This document shows positions 716 to 42,474 of a DNA stretch of 64,000 bases, piece by piece. The translations under genes and the position numbers were made by a program. Position 1 is the first letter of the stretch, and each line of letters opens with the position of its first letter. Location of the stretch: contig OZ001293.3 of assembly GCA_963921275.4 (NCBI GenBank), forward strand, positions 224,001 to 288,000, in the 5' to 3' direction. This DNA is from an uncultured Hormoscilla sp. GTDB taxonomy: Bacteria; Cyanobacteriota; Cyanobacteriia; Cyanobacteriales; Desertifilaceae. The notes beneath the pieces were generated by a model, which had not been told where the DNA came from, made no database searches, and was given only the letters and a program-made list of their open reading frames with translations.

Positions 716-835
716 TAGCCAATTTACAGGGCTAACTCTACCTGCTCGCCCTTTTGGACCCAGCGTGTCAGCCGGATTACGCTGGTTAATAATTACGAGG
801 CTGACAACAGTAGCTACCACGCTCGACACTCCATA
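716..835 (-). mobile_element. Group II intron domain I fragment
   Basis: Minus strand AACCAGCGTAATCCGGCTGACACGCTGGGTCCAAAAGGG resembles AACCAGTGAAATAAGGCTGACACACTGGCCCAAAAGGG of the intron at 43747. Confidence 0.55.
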
Positions 836-1017
836 ATCATAAAAATTAAGCCAATTCCCCGACCAGGCCCAATCCCAATAATTTGTCCCACACTCTTTGC
901 TAATAAACCACCGGTGGCCCTTAAGGGTTCTCAGACTCGATCCGCTAAAGGTCCAGCAATCAGATATCCCAGTGGCAAGGATGAACTAGCAATCATCCGT
1001 CTGGTTGCAAAGACGGA
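836..1017 (-). pseudogene. MFS transporter C-terminal fragment
   Basis: Minus-strand translation VFATRRMIASSSLPLGYLIAGPLADRV*EPLRATGGLLAKSVGQIIGIGPGRGIGLIF with an internal stop. Confidence 0.6.
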
Positions 1018-17557: not shown

Positions 17558-17752
17558 GCCACCGATACCATCAATGGTATCGCTACTGGTACAAAGCCCG
17601 CCTGCGCGGGCTACAATTTCCCTCAGACCGATACCTAGCCACCGATACCCGACCGCCGATACGATAAATGGTATCGCTACAGGTACAAAGCCCGCCTGCG
17701 CGGGCTACCATTGAGGGAAGTTTTCCCCCATCCGGCCACCGATACCATAAAT
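17558..17752. repeat. REP-like repeats upstream of the tyrosine transposase
   Basis: Two copies of CCGATAC..GGTATCGCTAC.GGTACAAAGCCCGCCTGCGCGGGCTAC (GTAG-footed palindrome on the minus strand) plus partial copies. Confidence 0.8.
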
Positions 17753-17782
17753 GATGACGGATATATTTGGAGAATTAAACTG

Positions 17783-18259
17783 ATGTCGAGAAATTTCTCA
17801 CAATTATACGTCCATTGCGTTTGGGCAACTTGGGGGCGGTTGCCAATAGTAACACCGGATATAACAGATATTGTTTATGCTGCGATCGCCCGTCAACGTC
17901 AGCTATTAAATTGTACAGTAATTGTGATCGGCGGAGTAGCAGACCAAGATCACTTATTGATTAGCTTTCCACCTAAGTTAACTATATCAGATATAGTCGG
18001 TCAAGCGAAAGGCAGTGCCTCTCATCTCATTATTCATAAAATTAAGCCTAATGAATTTTTCAAATGGCAGGGTGGCTATGGAGTATTTACTGTCAGCAAG
18101 GGTAATTTAGACCGAGTTGCAGAATACATCAGGAACCAAGTTATTCATCATCAACATAAAAAATTCATCCCAGACTGGGAAATCCCGGACGAGGTGAACC
18201 CAATGCCAAAGGGTTCCGGGGTGGGTGCGACGCTCAGCTTGCGCAGGCGGGCTTTGTGA
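17783..18259 (+). CDS. IS200/IS605-like Y1 tyrosine transposase, REP-associated (RAYT-like); HUH motif degenerate
   Basis: LYVHCVWAT, WQGGYG, YIRNQ..HH; DQDH in place of the usual DHVH; flanked by REP arrays. Confidence 0.8.
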   Translation: MSRNFSQLYVHCVWATWGRLPIVTPDITDIVYAAIARQRQLLNCTVIVIGGVADQDHLLISFPPKLTISDIVGQAKGSASHLIIHKIKPNEFFKWQGGYGVFTVSKGNLDRVAEYIRNQVIHHQHKKFIPDWEIPDEVNPMPKGSGVGATLSLRRRAL

Positions 18260-18690
18260 GAGTAGCCCTACCCTTTAGGGTTGGGGCGATCGGGTAAGGG
18301 CGATCTGGTGCGACCTCTGCCCGCGCAGGCGGGCTTTGGATTTGTAGCCCTACTCTTTAGGGTTGGGGCGAGGGGATGGGGGCGATCAGGTGCGACCTCA
18401 GCCTGCGCGGGCTTTGGAGTTGTAGCCCTACTCTTTAGGGTTGGGGCGAGGGGGTAAGGGCGATCGGGTGCGACCTCAGCCCGCGCAGGCTTTGGAATTG
18501 TAGCCCTACCCTTTAGGGTTGGGGCGAAGGGATGGGGGCGATCGGGTGCGACCTCTGCCCGCGCGGGCTTTGGAATTGTAGCCCTACTCTTTAGAGTTGG
18601 GGCGATCGGGTAAGGGCGATCGGGTGCGACGTTCAGCCCGCGCGGGCTTTGGAATTGTAGCCCTACCCTTTAGGGTTGGGGCGAGGGGAT
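18223..18690. repeat. Tandem REP array, 6 units of ~78-83 bp
   Basis: GGTGCGACCTCAGCCCGCGCAGGCGGGCTTTGGAATTGTAGCCCTACCCTTTAGGGTTGGGGCG repeated six times. Confidence 0.92.
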
Positions 18691-28335: not shown

Positions 28336-29649
28336 CTATTTGCTGTTCTTAAATCTTTTTTTTGTGGCCTGAAATGCTTCGGCCATTACTGCCTGTATTC
28401 TCTCCGGATCCGGTCTCTTTCCTCCCATTATGTCCCCAAAGTATACGCAGGCCCCCTCCCCTAATGCACCGGTGTACGCTGCTGCCCAACTGGCCGCGAT
28501 CGCACTCCCGAATCCTGGCACAAATTTGATTAATTCTCTCCCAATCGCCTGGGCTACAAATCCTCCCGCGATCGCACTTACTATTCCTCCTGCTTGCGAT
28601 CGAGTCAGGGTCTGGCCGTACAATTTCCCTAGCAGTCCTACCATTGATACTTGTAATGCCGTTAGGACCGGCATCGTCGCCAAGGGTAATGGCACTGCTG
28701 CTAGGGTGGCCGCGATCACGCAAAAGGCCAGTATGTAACGCCTCGCTACATCCCGGTACATATTGTCAATCTCGGCGATTGCTTCTCCATCTAATATTTG
28801 ATGTATTGCTTGCGCTTCCGCTTCCGGCAGCAGCTCGGCTATGCTATCTCTCAAGGCTTCTAATCCATAAAATACCGGATTGTATCCGTCCTCTTCTAAG
28901 GTGAAGTCCATTAATATTGCCCGATCGCACAGTTGCCCAAATTCCTCTACTATGGCCCCATAGGCCCGCTGGACTTCCTCGTACTCGGGGGGATATTCTG
29001 GATGAGCCTCCCGTGTCCCCTCTTTTGTGCGAGTAGCGCTCCCAGGAGACACAGAGATCCCGGCAGGATAGACTTCATGCAGGCAGGTTACTGCTAGCAG
29101 ACAGGGGATATGGGGATGTTTCTCTCGCAACTGCGTCCCTATTTGCCGCAAGCTCTCCGTGGCAAAATCGTTGATTTTTACTGTTAATATGAGAATCTTG
29201 GCCCGGCCACTCGCCTCTGATAGGTCCCCTAGCAGTTCCAAGACGATCGCCTCTGTCTCCTGGCCCACATCCCCCAGTCCCACTGTATCGGTAAAGATCA
29301 GCAGGGGCAACTCACTGGCAGGATAGGCATAGCGTTCTGTATGCTGGGTGTGGGGCCGAAACCCCTGGCCCACGATCTCCGCTGATACCCCCGTCAGGCC
29401 CCGGACGATGGAACTCTTCCCGGCCTGGGGTTTGCCGATCAAAATGGCCTCTGTGGTCGGTAGGGACCGCTCGACTCTCTCTAATATCTCTGCTACCCGA
29501 TCTTCCCTGACGCTAAACCACTCTACCATCCTCTGGGCTAGGCGATCGACTGGTAAGATTTTCCTCAAGCGTTCTGTAGTATGCTGCCAAACCCCACGCT
29601 TCTGACTCTCCTGCTTGGCATCAGGGTTTGCTTCCGGTTGCTCTGTCAT
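28336..29649 (-). CDS. GTPase with DUF697/YcjF-like C-terminal membrane domain
   Basis: GKPQAGKSS, DTVG; hydrophobic C-terminus AVPLP..KFVPGFGS. Confidence 0.8.
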   Translation of the reverse strand: MTEQPEANPDAKQESQKRGVWQHTTERLRKILPVDRLAQRMVEWFSVREDRVAEILERVERSLPTTEAILIGKPQAGKSSIVRGLTGVSAEIVGQGFRPHTQHTERYAYPASELPLLIFTDTVGLGDVGQETEAIVLELLGDLSEASGRAKILILTVKINDFATESLRQIGTQLREKHPHIPCLLAVTCLHEVYPAGISVSPGSATRTKEGTREAHPEYPPEYEEVQRAYGAIVEEFGQLCDRAILMDFTLEEDGYNPVFYGLEALRDSIAELLPEAEAQAIHQILDGEAIAEIDNMYRDVARRYILAFCVIAATLAAVPLPLATMPVLTALQVSMVGLLGKLYGQTLTRSQAGGIVSAIAGGFVAQAIGRELIKFVPGFGSAIAASWAAAYTGALGEGACVYFGDIMGGKRPDPERIQAVMAEAFQATKKRFKNSK

Positions 29650-29769
29650 CGGAATTCATGCCCCATCTCTTTATTCCTGATCCTGTATCTTATCCCATTA
29701 CATCAGCCCGATCGGATGATGGCCTATCCTCCCTGCTCCCTGCTGCCCGATACTGGCGTTACTTCTAAT

Positions 29770-30126
29770 GGCTCGCTTCGCTTTGCCCTTTTCTAGCAGG
29801 CGATCGCAAAATGCCTTAATCACAGGGTTAAAACGCCGAGCTGACATGGCTGGCATATACAATGCCTTGCGAAGCTTAGCATTACCGGTTTTACACAGAC
29901 GTGTTTTGCCTCTAACCGTTGAGCCAGAAACCTGCTGCCTTGGTGTGACCCCAGCATGAGCAGACACGAGACTCGCACTATCGTAAGTGCCAATCTCTAC
30001 TGAGGTTTGTAGTTTAGCTGCTGTCAGCTCACCTACACCGGGAATCGATAGGAGCAACTTCTGCTGGTGCTTCAGATTCTCATGAGTATCTATTAGCTCA
30101 GTAATGAGCTGTTTGATTTGCTCAAT
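29770..30126 (-). pseudogene. IS110-family recombinase, C-terminal (Tnp) domain remnant
   Basis: LLLSIPGVGELTA, AHAGVTP..QVSGS..GKTRLCKTGNAKLRKALYMPA; N-terminal DEDD domain absent. Confidence 0.88.
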
Positions 30127-30192
30127 CTGTCCATAGTTTAATGCCTTGTTGCTGTTAGTCATAGAGGATCTCCTGTTAAGTGATTAGTTTTA

Positions 30193-30861
30193 TTATTTTT
30201 GTATATTGCACAACTGCTCTGCCCATTCAAGGTTTTTAACATGAGCAAAGTATGTTTTATCTGTTACAGCACCTATATCGCGCTTGCTCCAGATATTCAC
30301 TGCATAATCATCCAGCCAAAATTCTTCTCGCTCCAACACATCCGCCGGCAACACTTCTGCCCAAAGTAGCTCATCGTTGGGAGTATCTACTTTGACCTTA
30401 AAGCTGCTCTCCATCGCGCTTATCCACTCATGGCAAGCATAATATACGCCGCAATTCACAGTAGCCCAATAATTAGGTATTCGGATAAATTTTGGTGTCC
30501 TGTTTTTGCGGCACATATCTGTAAATGCCTTATCAGGAAATTGAAGCATTACAGTATCCCAATCTACCCACAAAAACTCTCCAAATTCTTTCAACGCCCA
30601 AAGACACATCCAATGCTTCATCATATGTGCCATATTCTGTTGCACATATTCTGGTGCATCGTCAAAAATACGGTATACGTTAAGGTTAAACCCGGCAAGC
30701 TGCGCTGCTGACTCTTGGTTACCGGCGAGGACATAAAGAGCCTTTTTGTATAGCGGGTTAATTTCAATACTCTGAGGAATCTCTTTCAAAGTAACGTCCG
30801 CCGTACTGGCGACTCCGCCGCGCACATACGGATACAGCCCTGCAATCATCGGAATCGACAT
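30193..30861 (-). CDS. Hypothetical protein, GT-A-fold nucleotide-sugar transferase-like
   Basis: K..FLWVDWD (DxD), VNCGVYY, NDE, late His (FAHVK). Confidence 0.55.
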   Translation of the reverse strand: MSIPMIAGLYPYVRGGVASTADVTLKEIPQSIEINPLYKKALYVLAGNQESAAQLAGFNLNVYRIFDDAPEYVQQNMAHMMKHWMCLWALKEFGEFLWVDWDTVMLQFPDKAFTDMCRKNRTPKFIRIPNYWATVNCGVYYACHEWISAMESSFKVKVDTPNDELLWAEVLPADVLEREEFWLDDYAVNIWSKRDIGAVTDKTYFAHVKNLEWAEQLCNIQK

Positions 30862-31496
30862 GCAATCTCCTCAGCCTCCTCAGCGACTCCATAATCTTCA
30901 ATAACAACATTTTTGTGTCGTGCAATCATCTCAAGACGCATTTCATAGCTTTGCGACTTAAATATCTGCCAAATTTCGGCTTCTTCTTCTGGCGGACTGG
31001 AAAATCCAAGCTCATTGGCATAGCGTCGCATGCGCGACAAGGTGGCTAAGGCATATTGCCAATTAACTAGTGGTTTGAGCAGAAGTATTTTTCGCTGACG
31101 CACAGATTTTTTAGCAAGCGAATGAATAAATCCTCGTAAATCCCCGCCCGGAATATGTTCAACGCCAATAGCCGACAGCGCCACATCAAATTTATTGACA
31201 CGTTCTTCTAATGAAGGATACCTAGTTTTATGCGCAATTTCAACTACGCGCCCGTTAATTTTATAAACATTTGAAAAGGCTTTCTGTTCCAATGCCACTG
31301 CATTTCGCTGCTTCAGAGAGAAAACAAGTTCTTCTTTATCTGCGGCCCAGATGTCAATATCTCTTGGGGGCTTGCCGGTTAAAAGTGATTTATACGCTCC
31401 GCCCGCAATAAAAAACCTGACATTAACTGCCCCTTTGCCTAAAATAGCGGCTATTTCTTTTTCTGCATAACGCATAATCTCAAACTCCCTTAGCAT
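30846..31496 (-). CDS. Nucleotidyltransferase of the CCA/poly(A) polymerase head-domain type
   Basis: FIAGGA..L.G..PRDIDI, FD, R..RY; RBS AAGGAG upstream; overlaps the next gene. Confidence 0.65.
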   Translation of the reverse strand: MLREFEIMRYAEKEIAAILGKGAVNVRFFIAGGAYKSLLTGKPPRDIDIWAADKEELVFSLKQRNAVALEQKAFSNVYKINGRVVEIAHKTRYPSLEERVNKFDVALSAIGVEHIPGGDLRGFIHSLAKKSVRQRKILLLKPLVNWQYALATLSRMRRYANELGFSSPPEEEAEIWQIFKSQSYEMRLEMIARHKNVVIEDYGVAEEAEEIACRFR

Positions 31497-31634
31497 TTTA
31501 ACTCTCCTTTGTATCAGCAGAAACTTTTAGGGCAGGTAGATTCATATGGCCTCTTTTCCTTGACTGGCGATTTGATCTGAGTTGACTGGTGATGTTATCA
31601 GTTGAGACCGGTACAGGGTAGAGATGTTTTACCA

Positions 31635-31820
31635 GTAACCATCCTTGTAAATACGAGTTCATCTGTGTTACAGAGACTCCCGATCCCATTCGGTTGTCTA
31701 GCAAAAACAGTAAGCAGTCTGGGTCTCGATCTGCGCGACAGGTTCAATTGACCTCTGGCGGGCTACGGACTTATCGATAGCTTTCTACCCTGATGTCTGT
31801 TCTCTATTCCAACATACAAG
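31635..31820 (-). ncRNA. Putative IS110 (IS621-type) left end encoding a bridge RNA
   Basis: End CTTGTAT; loop motifs CCGT-AGCCCGCCA..AACCTG-TCGCGCAG-AT and AACCGA-ATGGGATCG..CGTAT-TTACAAGG-ATGGTT; same orientation as the IS110 remnant. Confidence 0.8.
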
Positions 31821-31903
31821 GCGGACTTTGTTTGTGTAGCCCTACCCTTTAGGGTAGGGGCGTGGGCGTGGGGGCGCGAATTTTACTCCTACAAGTCCCA
31901 AGT

Positions 31904-33396
31904 TCAAAAATAAAAATAGATATAGGGTAAACCGCCTTGGGGGGCAAGATGCCAAACAGTATAGAGACAAATGGGGACCAATAGCAGCTTGAGAGGCCAG
32001 TTAAGTTGCAACTCGAGCAGTCGGTGTAAAACAAATAAGCAGAACATGCCGAGGAAGAGGAGTCCCAGTAACAAAGCGAATTGTAAGCGATCGAGCCCCA
32101 TACTGTCCAGATAGACTTTCTGAGCAAACTGAACATCAGCAGTATATCCCCAAAGATGTTGGAGAACCCAACCCGAGTCTGGTAAAGAAGGCAAGCGGAA
32201 AAAGATCCAGGCAGTAAACACCATAGCTTGAGTGAGTGCCCAAGCCAATATTACCCCAGGAAAGCTGTGCCAGAGAGAGTTCGGTCCGGAGATCGCTTCT
32301 GTAATCCGATGCACTACCAAAGCCATACCGTGAAGTAGGCCCCAGACAATAAAGCCCCAAGCTGCGCCGTGCCAAATGCCCGCGATCGCCATGACGATCA
32401 GTAAATTGAGGCAAGTAGAGGCCAAACCGCGCCGGGAACCGCCGAGAGGGAAATAGAGATAGTTGCGCAACCAATCCCCCAAACTCATGTGCCAGCGCCG
32501 CCAGAAATCCGCAATACTGGTACTAAAGTAAGGATAGTCAAAATTTGCGGGCAAATGTAAGCCGAACAAGATGGCACTACCCCGGACAATATCTACATAG
32601 CCACTAAAATCCAGATATAGTTGCAAGCCATAGGCCAAGGTAGCCAACCAGAGGTCGCCGCTACCAGCCCGGACCAGATTATCAAAGCATAAAGTGACGA
32701 AAATTACTAGTCGATCGGCTACAAGAACTTTTTTGGCCGCCCCAAAGGCGATCGACCACAAAGCTTCGGCCACCAACTGAGCATTAGGAAAGCGCAAACT
32801 TGCCCATTAACTAGCGAACTGATGATAGGGAGTAATGGGCCAGAAATGAGTTTAAGAAAGAATAGCTTATAGGCAGCAAAGGGGAGAAACCCCTGAGCTG
32901 CCGGGGCCCCCCGATAGACATCAATTAGGTAAGCAATGGACTCAAAGCTAAAGAAACTCAGACCCAAAGGTGCGATCGGATGATCGGCGATCCAGTTTAC
33001 CATTTTTTGGGGAATGGGCGAATCTAGTAGGGGTTGAAGTGATGAGAACAGAAAGGGTAAATATTTGAAGCCCAGCAGTAGCAGCACATTCAATATAATC
33101 CCCAAGATCAGGAGTACCCAGTCCCAGTCTAACTTAGTAAAGGCTGCATTCTTTGACTCCGAAGCAGCACTCTCCCCCGATCCACGATACCCCATCAATC
33201 GTCCTAAGCCAAAATTTATGAATGCGATCGCCAGCAGCAAGGGAACATACTGTACTTGCCAAAAGGCGTAAAAGGCCAAACTAGCAATTAGGACGATCCA
33301 GAGTCGCCAGTTTGGGCGCGGCACAGACCAGTAAATTCCGCCAGCAAGCAGCAAGAACATGCCATAGGCGATCGAAGTCAAGCTCATAATCAGCAA
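31904..33396 (-). pseudogene. MBOAT family O-acyltransferase (AlgI/DltB-like), frameshifted near 32800
   Basis: PLGLSFFSF..ISGP in one frame; DFSGY, FWRRWHMSL, GIWHGA in another. Confidence 0.85.

Positions 33397-41138: not shown

Positions 41139-42474
<1,336 letters not shown>

Follow-up and report, generated by a model that had tools for sequence, protein, structure and literature searches.

The 64-kb stretch of DNA analyzed here (hereafter, the window) very probably holds, on its minus strand, the left end of a decayed IS621-like insertion sequence of the IS110 group, with a bridge RNA aimed at the loop of a repetitive extragenic palindromic (REP) hairpin. The element type belongs to the IS110 group, an assignment that is valid for the type because PF01548 is present in the full-length congener copy L036, and the window copy is a defective member. 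The evidence comprises RNA and protein homology to IS621, a covarying structure, a match between guides and flanks, and all of the junctions. The bridge RNA is a non-coding RNA that the left end carries ahead of the recombinase gene, with target- and donor-binding loops. The element is thus a cyanobacterial addition to the already known REP-targeting bridge-RNA IS110 elements.

Layout of the window copy

On the minus strand, positions 31813-31860 read as a REP half (CCCCTACCCTAAAGGGTAGGGCTACACAAACAA-AGTCCGC), then CT, then TGTATGTTGG. An earlier note on this DNA had reported AGTCCGC/CT/TGTATG at 31827-31813 along with a set of guide words, all of which were present at those places when the minus strand was re-read. 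Further along, a AGGAAAAGAGG ribosome-binding site and an ATG at 31545-31543 (minus strand) open a frame of merely 15 codons (MNLPALKVSADTKES, then a stop), followed in order by ORF 30846-31496 and ORF 30193-30861, neither of which could be placed in a Pfam family, and then by the PF02371-matching ORF 29698-30162. With a recombinase remnant downstream on the same strand, the bridge-RNA region represents the 5' end of a larger, disrupted IS110 element. The features, with their positions in the window, are as follows.

31821-31860, minus: left half of a disrupted REP unit, i.e., hairpin 1 (CCCTACCCTAAAGGGTAGGG), spacer, and left target AGTCCGC; REP matches end at CT
31819-31820, minus: CT core dinucleotide at the target/left-end junction, common to 15/15 left and 5/5 right junctions
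31787-31818, minus: start of the left end (TGTATGTTGG...), with the right-donor sequence read by the right donor guide and a 5' stem-loop region; CTTGTAT invariant
31633-31786, minus: bridge-RNA region (model R1, 30.1 bits, E 3.8e-7, positions 1-145 of 145)
31756-31764, minus: left target guide (LTG) AGCCCGCCA, i.e., AGCCCGC + CA; covaries with the left flank in relatives
31731-31738, minus: right target guide (RTG) TCGCGCAG, the reverse complement of CT-GCGCGA
31681-31689, minus: left donor guide (LDG-like) ATGGGATCG, i.e., ATGGGAT + CG; the family right end is ATAGGAT-CT
31643-31650, minus: right donor guide (RDG) TTACAAGG; its reverse complement CCTTGTAA is to be compared with the left end CCTTGTAT
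31528-31545, minus: start codon and first six codons of the recombinase gene (MNLPAL), after which element homology stops
30846-31496, minus: foreign ORF 1, 216 aa, nucleotidyltransferase-like with a Gad2 lead, at the expected position of the DEDD domain
30193-30861, minus: foreign ORF 2, 222 aa, with a weak lead to phage-type sugar transferases
29767-30132, minus: recombinase remnant, residues 166-286 of about 320, within ORF 29698-30162; 87% identical to the full-length congener copy
17795-18139, plus: Y1 transposase (RAYT-like) gene of the targeted REP family (PF01797, 69.1 bits; C1:241795-242139)
17595-18335, both sides of the RAYT-like gene: REP arrays with three exact target copies and one with a single mismatch

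Homology and structure of the bridge RNA

The claim that this region encodes a bridge RNA was borne out by a covariance model, R1, constructed from 27 proteobacterial left ends only and containing no sequence of this genus. Across the 64-kb window, R1 yielded a single match, full length over all 145 positions, at 31633-31786 on the minus strand (30.1 bits), with an E value of 3.8e-7 that is rough owing to a shortened calibration; nothing else was matched there at E values up to 1. The same model scored 95 bits immediately 5' of the transposase gene in an E. coli locus that carries the IS621 annotation; this locus was reached through a proteobacterial relative, and blastn of the window RNA against E. 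coli genomes gave no match. The IS621 motifs given in the earlier note hold in a RefSeq-annotated IS621 copy, which reads CT-TGTATTAT at the left end, GCCGT-ATCGGGCCT and CAACCTG...GCGTAG-AT in the target-binding part, and CCGTAT-TTGCAAGG-TTGGTT in the donor-binding part. The comparison drew on 80 loci whose products are related to the L036 recombinase (42-54% identity outside the genus) and which occur in Eremiobacteraeota, many proteobacteria, and other cyanobacteria. The left ends of these loci can be aligned with that of the window, with CTTGTAT (44/44 aligned left ends), AGA after the RTG, and ACAAGG being invariant or nearly so.

In the model-based comparison, the fold with two internal loops foreseen in the earlier note was found, and the guides of the window RNA sit in both loops. 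Both this RNA and that of IS621 form 24 of the 26 consensus pairs, and the two pairs broken in the window RNA lie in the outer stem of the target-binding loop. Across a 49-sequence alignment, fitted to R1 itself, which favours pairing, 96.4% of cells pair, vs 33-37% after sliding partners by 1-3 columns, both sides have changed in all 26 pairs, and 0/500 shuffles reach the observed values. The slid controls and an independent RNAalifold analysis of MAFFT alignments point the same way as the model-based structure. The outer stem of the target-binding loop is seen within the proteobacterial group and in the model-based alignment only. For a mixed MAFFT alignment of 44 sequences, RNAalifold returned the inner hairpins and the pairing of the left end with the RDG, and no more than these.

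Folding of 31625-31826 (minus) as a single sequence gave -50.8 kcal/mol and no signal by itself (z = -0.06 vs shuffles); the window copy alone folds no better than shuffles, and the structural evidence is that of the comparative analysis. Rfam 15 produced no match to the region at the gathering threshold and, at E values up to 10 over 29500-32000, three chance matches to snoRNAs only. With filters off, R1 detected nothing at E values below 0.1 in the genome's two other IS110 fragments, L127 and L128; for L127, this silence fits its 5' truncation.

Guides compared with flanks and ends

The guides of the window RNA spell the target AGCCCGC-CT-GCGCG. For the element family in this genus, guides and matching sequences are as follows.

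LTG AGCCCGC-CA: matches left flank AGCCCGC-CT
RTG TCGCGC-AG: matches right flank CT-GCGCG
LDG ATAGGAT-CT (ATGGGAT-CT or -CG in decayed copies): matches right end ATAGGAT-CT
RDG T(T/C)ACAAGG: matches left end CCTTGT

As the earlier note had remarked, the last LTG base mismatches the core, given that the guide ends in CA and the core is CT. Among 61 distinct pairs of flank and left end, the 7 bases left of the core recur in the LTG with no mismatch in 26 and with one mismatch in 22, vs 6% and 31%, respectively, for deliberately mis-paired controls. The window's own left flank matches its LTG at 6/7 bases, and those of its orthologues at 7/7. On the right, RTGs match flank positions 3-6 at a mean of 1.84 of 4, vs 1.23 for shuffles (maximum 1.73 in 1000); within the family, the flank reads CT-GCGCG at 5/5 right ends, the right end of the window copy having been lost.

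In 41 of 42 relatives outside the genus (34 of them exactly), the right end can be located from the first 7 LDG bases plus CT, with four spellings (ACAGTAT, ACGGTAT, ACGGCAT, and ACACAAT) each matched by its own end; the fifth spelling, ATAGGAT, is that of this genus. Copies L036 and L034 have an LDG, ATAGGATCT, that is identical to their own right end. The window LDG is ATGGGAT-CG, which departs in two places (position 3 and the second base of the core) from ATAGGAT-CT, the sole right-end sequence observed in the family. The RDG motif ACAAG pairs with left-end CTTGT in 44/44 sequences. The earlier note's match between the window RDG and the element's own left end stands for the core plus TGTA, after which there is one mismatch.

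Junctions and insertion sites

Further copies of the left end lie at the predicted site, as the earlier note would have it, in that all 15 left junctions, with variants of 1-2 bases allowed, and all five right junctions conform. The 15 left junctions, from four congeneric genomes, comprise 13 reading AGCCCGC/CT, the window with AGTCCGC/CT, and L031 with AGCTTGC/CT; they correspond to approximately nine distinct insertion sites, judged by eye from the flanks, since the four genomes are very closely related (97-100% identical at the window locus). Both orthologues of the window copy read AGCCCGC, so that the T in AGTCCGC represents a later substitution. The right junctions (5/5) read CATAGGAT|CT|GCGCGGGCT.

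Both ends are present at four congener loci, where the element measures about 1.29-1.32 kb and full-length copies terminate in ...CCCTTGACATTCGCC-CATAGGAT|CT|GCGCGGGCT. For the window copy, homology ends about 100 bases before the expected right end, and CTGCGCGGGCT, with up to 1 mismatch allowed, was not found within 5.9 kb downstream. A search for empty sites yielded no clean one: the flanks of the four full-length congener copies, traced in genome G000, fall at non-adjacent places or at a site from which the whole REP unit is absent, and a more distant congener has a different gene order, with the pre-insertion site not recovered there either.

In the genome, a 261-base query spanning the junction has three long matches, i.e., itself, C1:5775453-5775695 (89%), and C1:6451588-6451809 (87%). 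The remaining 48 matches cover the REP half only (query bases 1-42), each ending at CT; the REP half that the earlier note had placed at 31821-31860, abutting the element at the core, is thereby corroborated.

A REP hairpin as target

The 14-base target AGCCCGCCTGCGCG occurs in the window exactly where it had been predicted, at 17595-17608 (plus), 17689-17702 (plus), and 18322-18335 (minus), and with one mismatch at 18240-18253 (minus), i.e., four matches vs 0.01 expected (100 shuffles). Genome-wide, there are 107 exact copies vs 0.03 expected from base composition, and 160 vs 1.4 with up to 1 mismatch. The exact copies run on into GGCT in 96 of 107 cases, giving the complete hairpin AGCCCGC-CTGC-GCGGGCT, and 95 of 107 have the REP-unit GCTA within the 20 preceding bases; the target hairpin is the second hairpin of the host REP unit. 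With the CT core in the hairpin loop, insertion parts the two arms.

Between the REPs at 17595, 17689, 18240, and 18322 lies a gene with a Y1 transposase domain (PF01797, 69.1 bits, 17795-18139). Gene and repeat content thus confirm the neighbouring locus as RAYT-like, as had been proposed. The broader proposal, of an RNA-guided recombinase aimed at the REPs of that locus, holds for the target and the Y1 gene, but the window copy is without a functional recombinase of its own.

Recombinase remnants and decay

The element is present in 3/4 other members of genus g1 and in 0/9 genomes of two other genera, among 14 genomes of the family. Congener copy L036 retains an open frame of 320 aa that matches both PF01548 (E 2.6e-25) and PF02371 (E 1e-22) and shares 43% identity with the RefSeq IS621 transposase (E 3e-87). 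The catalytic residues of the IS621 recombinase named by Hiraizumi et al. (PMC11208158), D11, E60, D102, D105, and S241, are all aligned and conserved in the L036 frame. In the window, ORF 29698-30162 matches PF02371 (Transposase_20 of IS116/IS110/IS902; E 2.3e-20), and the serine of its ...RQQVSGST... stands at the L036 position aligned with IS621 S241. No PF01548 (DEDD) domain was found in ORFs 30846-31496 and 30193-30861; the whole genome has one match to PF01548, elsewhere, interrupted by two TAG stops.

The genome search suggested by the earlier note did yield further copies of the left end, but none is intact. The window copy (copy A) continues from codon 7 as foreign DNA, followed by recombinase residues 166-286. 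The genome's two other left ends belong to copy B, with about 20 recombinase codons kept, and copy C, an internal-deletion derivative, and a fourth fragment at about 1.85 Mb of C1 is 5'-truncated and carries stop codons, with its right end kept. The four element fragments thus include no intact one, and those other than the PF01548-bearing fragment are without the DEDD domain. No intact recombinase gene was found in the genome, whose assembly is rated 96.7% complete, such that a copy may have been missed. The window copy lacks both a DEDD domain and a right end, and as no intact partner was found, it is best read as a fossil: to judge from its sequence, it is dead and would not move autonomously, the DEDD domain having been replaced and the right end being gone.

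The foreign segment of 1.4 kb is unique in the genome, and both of its ORFs are not part of the transposon. ORF 1 matches a PHROG nucleotidyltransferase family (E 1.6e-7), and its homologues share 45-57% identity with it. A precomputed PF26128 (Gad2) label is attached to 5 of the 24 ORF 1-related proteins found, counting a 96%-identical protein, and the nearest Atlas clusters are partly Gad2-labelled and mostly viral. Since a Pfam scan of ORF 1 itself listed PolyA_pol only (E 0.06) and not PF26128, Gad2 stays a lead. ORF 2 offers only weak leads to phage sugar transferases, and PADLOC and NCBIfam returned nothing usable for both ORFs.

Proposed mechanism and alternative readings

An intact element would be about 1.3 kb long, starting with CT-TGTATG, continuing with a bridge-RNA gene of about 200 bases and then a recombinase gene that encodes about 320 aa (DEDD/RuvC domain plus Tnp domain), and ending in ...TTGACA(13-14 nt)CATAGGAT-CT. 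In IS621, the RE-LE junction of the circular form is reported to rebuild a sigma-70 promoter that drives the bridge RNA (PMC11208160, PMC11208158). By analogy, the present element would excise as a circle, setting the right-end TTGACA 17-18 bases upstream of the left-end TATGTT and thus permitting transcription of the bridge RNA. The right end does carry a perfect TTGACA 13-14 bases from its terminus, and the 17-18-base spacing to TATGTT in the circle was counted by hand. The donor-binding loop would hold the RE-CT-LE junction and the target-binding loop AGCCCGC-CT-GCGCG, with the recombinase exchanging strands at CT, such that insertion would split the REP hairpin AGCCCGC-CTGC-GCGGGCT in its loop. 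The window copy was inserted at a REP site of this kind, with the DEDD domain later giving way to the two-ORF segment of 1.4 kb and the 3' end being lost. Transcription, circle formation, and past activity of the element are what we infer from this likeness to IS621.

In the integrated window copy, a REP half stands in place of the right end, so the copy is without the -35 box. A scan of 31450-31950 for promoters and terminators gave one promoter-like site, at 31907-31880 (minus), vs 0.6 expected by chance, and no terminator. Two RNA-library runs from one sample contained 5 and 3 contigs on 31529-31763 and the recombinase remnant at 90-97% likeness, with no cover of 30188-31447; such libraries can hold DNA, hence the contigs cannot show transcription.

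Could the two foreign ORFs now use the left end as their promoter and leader? The left end and these ORFs are collinear and in the same orientation in three genomes, and the ORFs, which have an AAGGAG ribosome-binding site of their own, begin 48 bases past the former start codon. However, the three genomes are 97-100% identical over the whole locus, meaning that retention is uninformative on selection, and no promoter-like site lies inside the left end, the sole one (31907-31880, minus) being upstream of the REP. We regard co-option as quite unlikely.

The second alternative is that an orphan bridge-RNA gene is still in use, transcribed from the chromosome and acting in trans at REP hairpins with the recombinase of another copy, for example an L036-type frame begun at an internal GTG. 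Bridge RNA works in trans (Durrant et al., PMC11208160), the RNA core retains 24/26 pairs with intact target guides, the genome offers three left ends and 107 perfect targets, and the RNA-library contigs cover the bridge-RNA sequence of related copies. Those contigs, however, extend into more intact copies and may reflect DNA carry-over, and the integrated copy lacks the -35 box that a right end would supply. Moreover, the genome (96.7% complete assembly) yielded no intact recombinase gene and no whole donor, its sole right end being in a 5'-truncated copy. Continued use in trans thus appears highly unlikely.

That the guide-like words are REP-derived sequence, or chance matches in an unrelated non-coding stretch, has a negligible probability: the REP hairpin is palindromic, and both guides thus resemble REP pieces on either strand, but such a reading is opposed by the homology over 145 model positions to bridge RNAs of other phyla and of IS621, by the covariation of guide positions with flanks and ends in relatives, and by the recombinase remnants downstream.

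Relation to known systems

Returning to the preferred reading, i.e., a decayed, IS621-like element, publications on REP targeting by IS110-family elements date back to 2003-2006, and those on the bridge-RNA mechanism to 2024 (PMC11208160). The closest well-studied system is IS621 of E. coli (Choi 2003, Durrant 2024, Hiraizumi 2024), with which the Hormoscilla family shares (i) the order of left end, bridge RNA, recombinase, and right end, (ii) a CT core, a left end of CT-TGTAT, and a two-loop bridge RNA, both being matched by R1, (iii) a two-domain recombinase with all five catalytic residues aligned in family copy L036, and (iv) a target in a REP together with a -35-like box in the right end that would complete a promoter at the circle junction. 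The recombinase is nevertheless only 43% identical, and the donor end is ATAGGAT-CT instead of the ACAGTAT-CT of IS621. Geometry differs as well. As read from the IS621 copy, the 3' arm of the REP stem provides its left target, ATCAGGC, and insertion takes place just past the hairpin. In the Hormoscilla element, by contrast, the 5' arm serves as left target, and the loop contains both the start of the right target and CT. The two final LTG bases are CA in the Hormoscilla element and CT in IS621, whose LDG is the guide ending in CA. The RTG of the Hormoscilla element, which has a cyanobacterial host, is complementary to 5 bases past the core.

Two Pseudomonas putida IS110 elements, ISPpu10 and ISPpu9, are likewise described as inserting at many identical REP copies, at a target associated with a stem-loop (bioRxiv 10.64898/2026.03.19.712850; PMC12288879). 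For ISPpu10, the account given is of a stem-loop in which a 5' extension is paired with the left target (bioRxiv 10.64898/2026.03.19.712850); unlike this, the predicted Hormoscilla hairpin has the left target as one arm and the right target as the other. Foreign genes between left-end and recombinase sequence are also a feature of cargo-bearing or expanded IS110 loci (bioRxiv 10.64898/2026.08.14.744561), but the window segment stands in place of the catalytic DEDD domain and no right end remains, making this a broken element and not a functional cargo carrier.

Searches of one literature library returned no paper with both Hormoscilla and IS110, though the supplementary tables of Durrant et al. 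may list relatives, and none joining bridge RNA, cyanobacteria, and repetitive extragenic palindromic. Particular to the present element is its combination of host lineage, 43% distance from IS621, donor word, and a core within a hairpin loop. Through it, the IS621-type bridge-recombinase elements gain a cyanobacterial lineage. Its natural specificity is fully readable from sequence (14-base target, donor end, and putative junction promoter). Its target sits astride the loop of a REP hairpin spread by a RAYT-like system to more than 100 sites, providing a second natural geometry to set against the stem-loop-gated targeting reported for ISPpu10 and a ready-made orthogonal set of guide, donor, and target for collections of bridge recombinases. 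For genome annotation, the stretch is to be labelled as a dead IS remnant and the enclosed ORFs as non-transposon.

Rearrangements at the start of the recombinase gene

Just past codon 5-6, the recombinase gene is interrupted by three different rearrangements whose breakpoints lie no more than 2 bases apart. Copy A has the foreign segment there, L036, L034, and L040 carry a 44-base palindrome, and L032 has yet another sequence. As a speculation to which we assign a very low probability, the left end, whose bridge RNA is still well formed, may have undergone more than plain decay: a phage-like module of two genes (a Gad2-like nucleotidyltransferase and a putative sugar transferase) may have been captured at this recurrent breakpoint, giving rise to non-autonomous, cargo-bearing bridge-RNA elements mobile in trans. 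Were this so, intact copies could carry cargo elements into any of more than 100 REP hairpins, and IS110 elements would have a natural route for swapping their own recombinase for cargo. The 44-base palindrome, which separates the 320-aa frame of L036 from its ATG, is a dispersed repeat with 25 strand-hits in the genome.

Recombinase gene breakpoint

The recombinase gene of this IS110-group, IS621-like element is broken by three unrelated rearrangements, all of which lie no more than 2 bases apart, 3′ of ...ACC(A/T)GCC(CT). The breakpoint is at 31528-31531 in the window copy and in the same codon at the congener loci L032, L036, L034 and L040; when its sequence was compared with the target and the donor of the element, it was a poor match to either. 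The rearrangements are as follows.

Window copy: foreign ORFs
L036, L034 and L040: insertion of a palindrome
L032: junction to other DNA

In the window copy, the foreign DNA lies in the interior of the IS remnant:

30193-31496, minus strand: two foreign ORFs

This two-ORF segment occurs a single time in the window's genome. The 216-amino-acid product is nucleotidyltransferase-like, matching PHROG 1614 (E 1.6e-7), with some homologues bearing a precomputed PF26128 Gad2 label, and its Atlas neighbours are for the most part viral. For the 222-amino-acid product, phage sugar transferases are weak leads.

At L036, L034 and L040, the palindrome sits just 3′ of the recombinase ATG, where it separates codon 5 from the IGIDIAK motif, such that an in-frame GTG remains within the hairpin. 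At L032 (G005:C359), the left end is followed on its 3′ side by MNLPA and then by a frame whose residues (...HxxRHSHAS...ERY), judged by eye, resemble those of a tyrosine recombinase or integrase.

The palindrome constitutes a second dispersed repeat, a perfect 44-base palindrome of the form CTGAGGTTTGTAGTGAGGAC-(TTCC or GGAA)-GTCCTCACTACAAACCTCAG with an adjoining A/T run. It gives 25 strand-hits across the window's genome and is present in the window:

About 6034 (C1:230034): 44-base palindrome

Guide regions and the end of the window copy

In the internal-deletion derivative at C1:6451588 (copy C) as well as in L032, GGCGATCGCC is found directly 5′ of the left target guide in place of AAGTCCGTAG, and constitutes a changed 5′ side of the target-binding loop. 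It includes the octamer GCGATCGC, which we take to be the cyanobacterial HIP1 motif.

The left donor guide of the window copy recurs at the end of the residual recombinase ORF:

29692-29698, minus strand: ATGGGAT, the window copy's own left donor guide

This 7-mer is located approximately 70 bases beyond the end of IS homology, is followed by AA instead of CT, and has no REP half after it. It is probably a chance match, the expectation being 0.36 hits in the 5.9 kb scanned.

REP units and split flanks

The RAYT-like locus spans 17595-18335, with REP arrays on either side of the transposase gene:

17795-18139: Y1 transposase (RAYT-like) gene

The REP unit is bipartite, with a variable-stem hairpin around CCTAAAGGG followed by a CTACAnGAACAA spacer and then the invariant hairpin AGCCCGC-CTGC-GCGGGCT. 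At L037 in a congener genome (G004:C3), a full-length IS copy is present, and the REP-bearing unit there has GGTCA at both boundaries. The orthologous site in the window's genome (C1:2634700-2635320) is without the IS and also without the entire REP-bearing unit of ~130 bases; REP units are therefore themselves polymorphic among these close relatives.

For both L036 and L041, the left and right flanks map to positions megabases apart in the window's genome, with one right flank of this pair mapping onto window positions 798-965. Such split flanks could stem from rearrangement at IS/REP sites, from repeats, or from assembly of the congener MAGs.

One further feature was detected in the window:

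42141-42218, plus strand: group II intron domain (Rfam RF00029), which at 47 bits exceeds the gathering score
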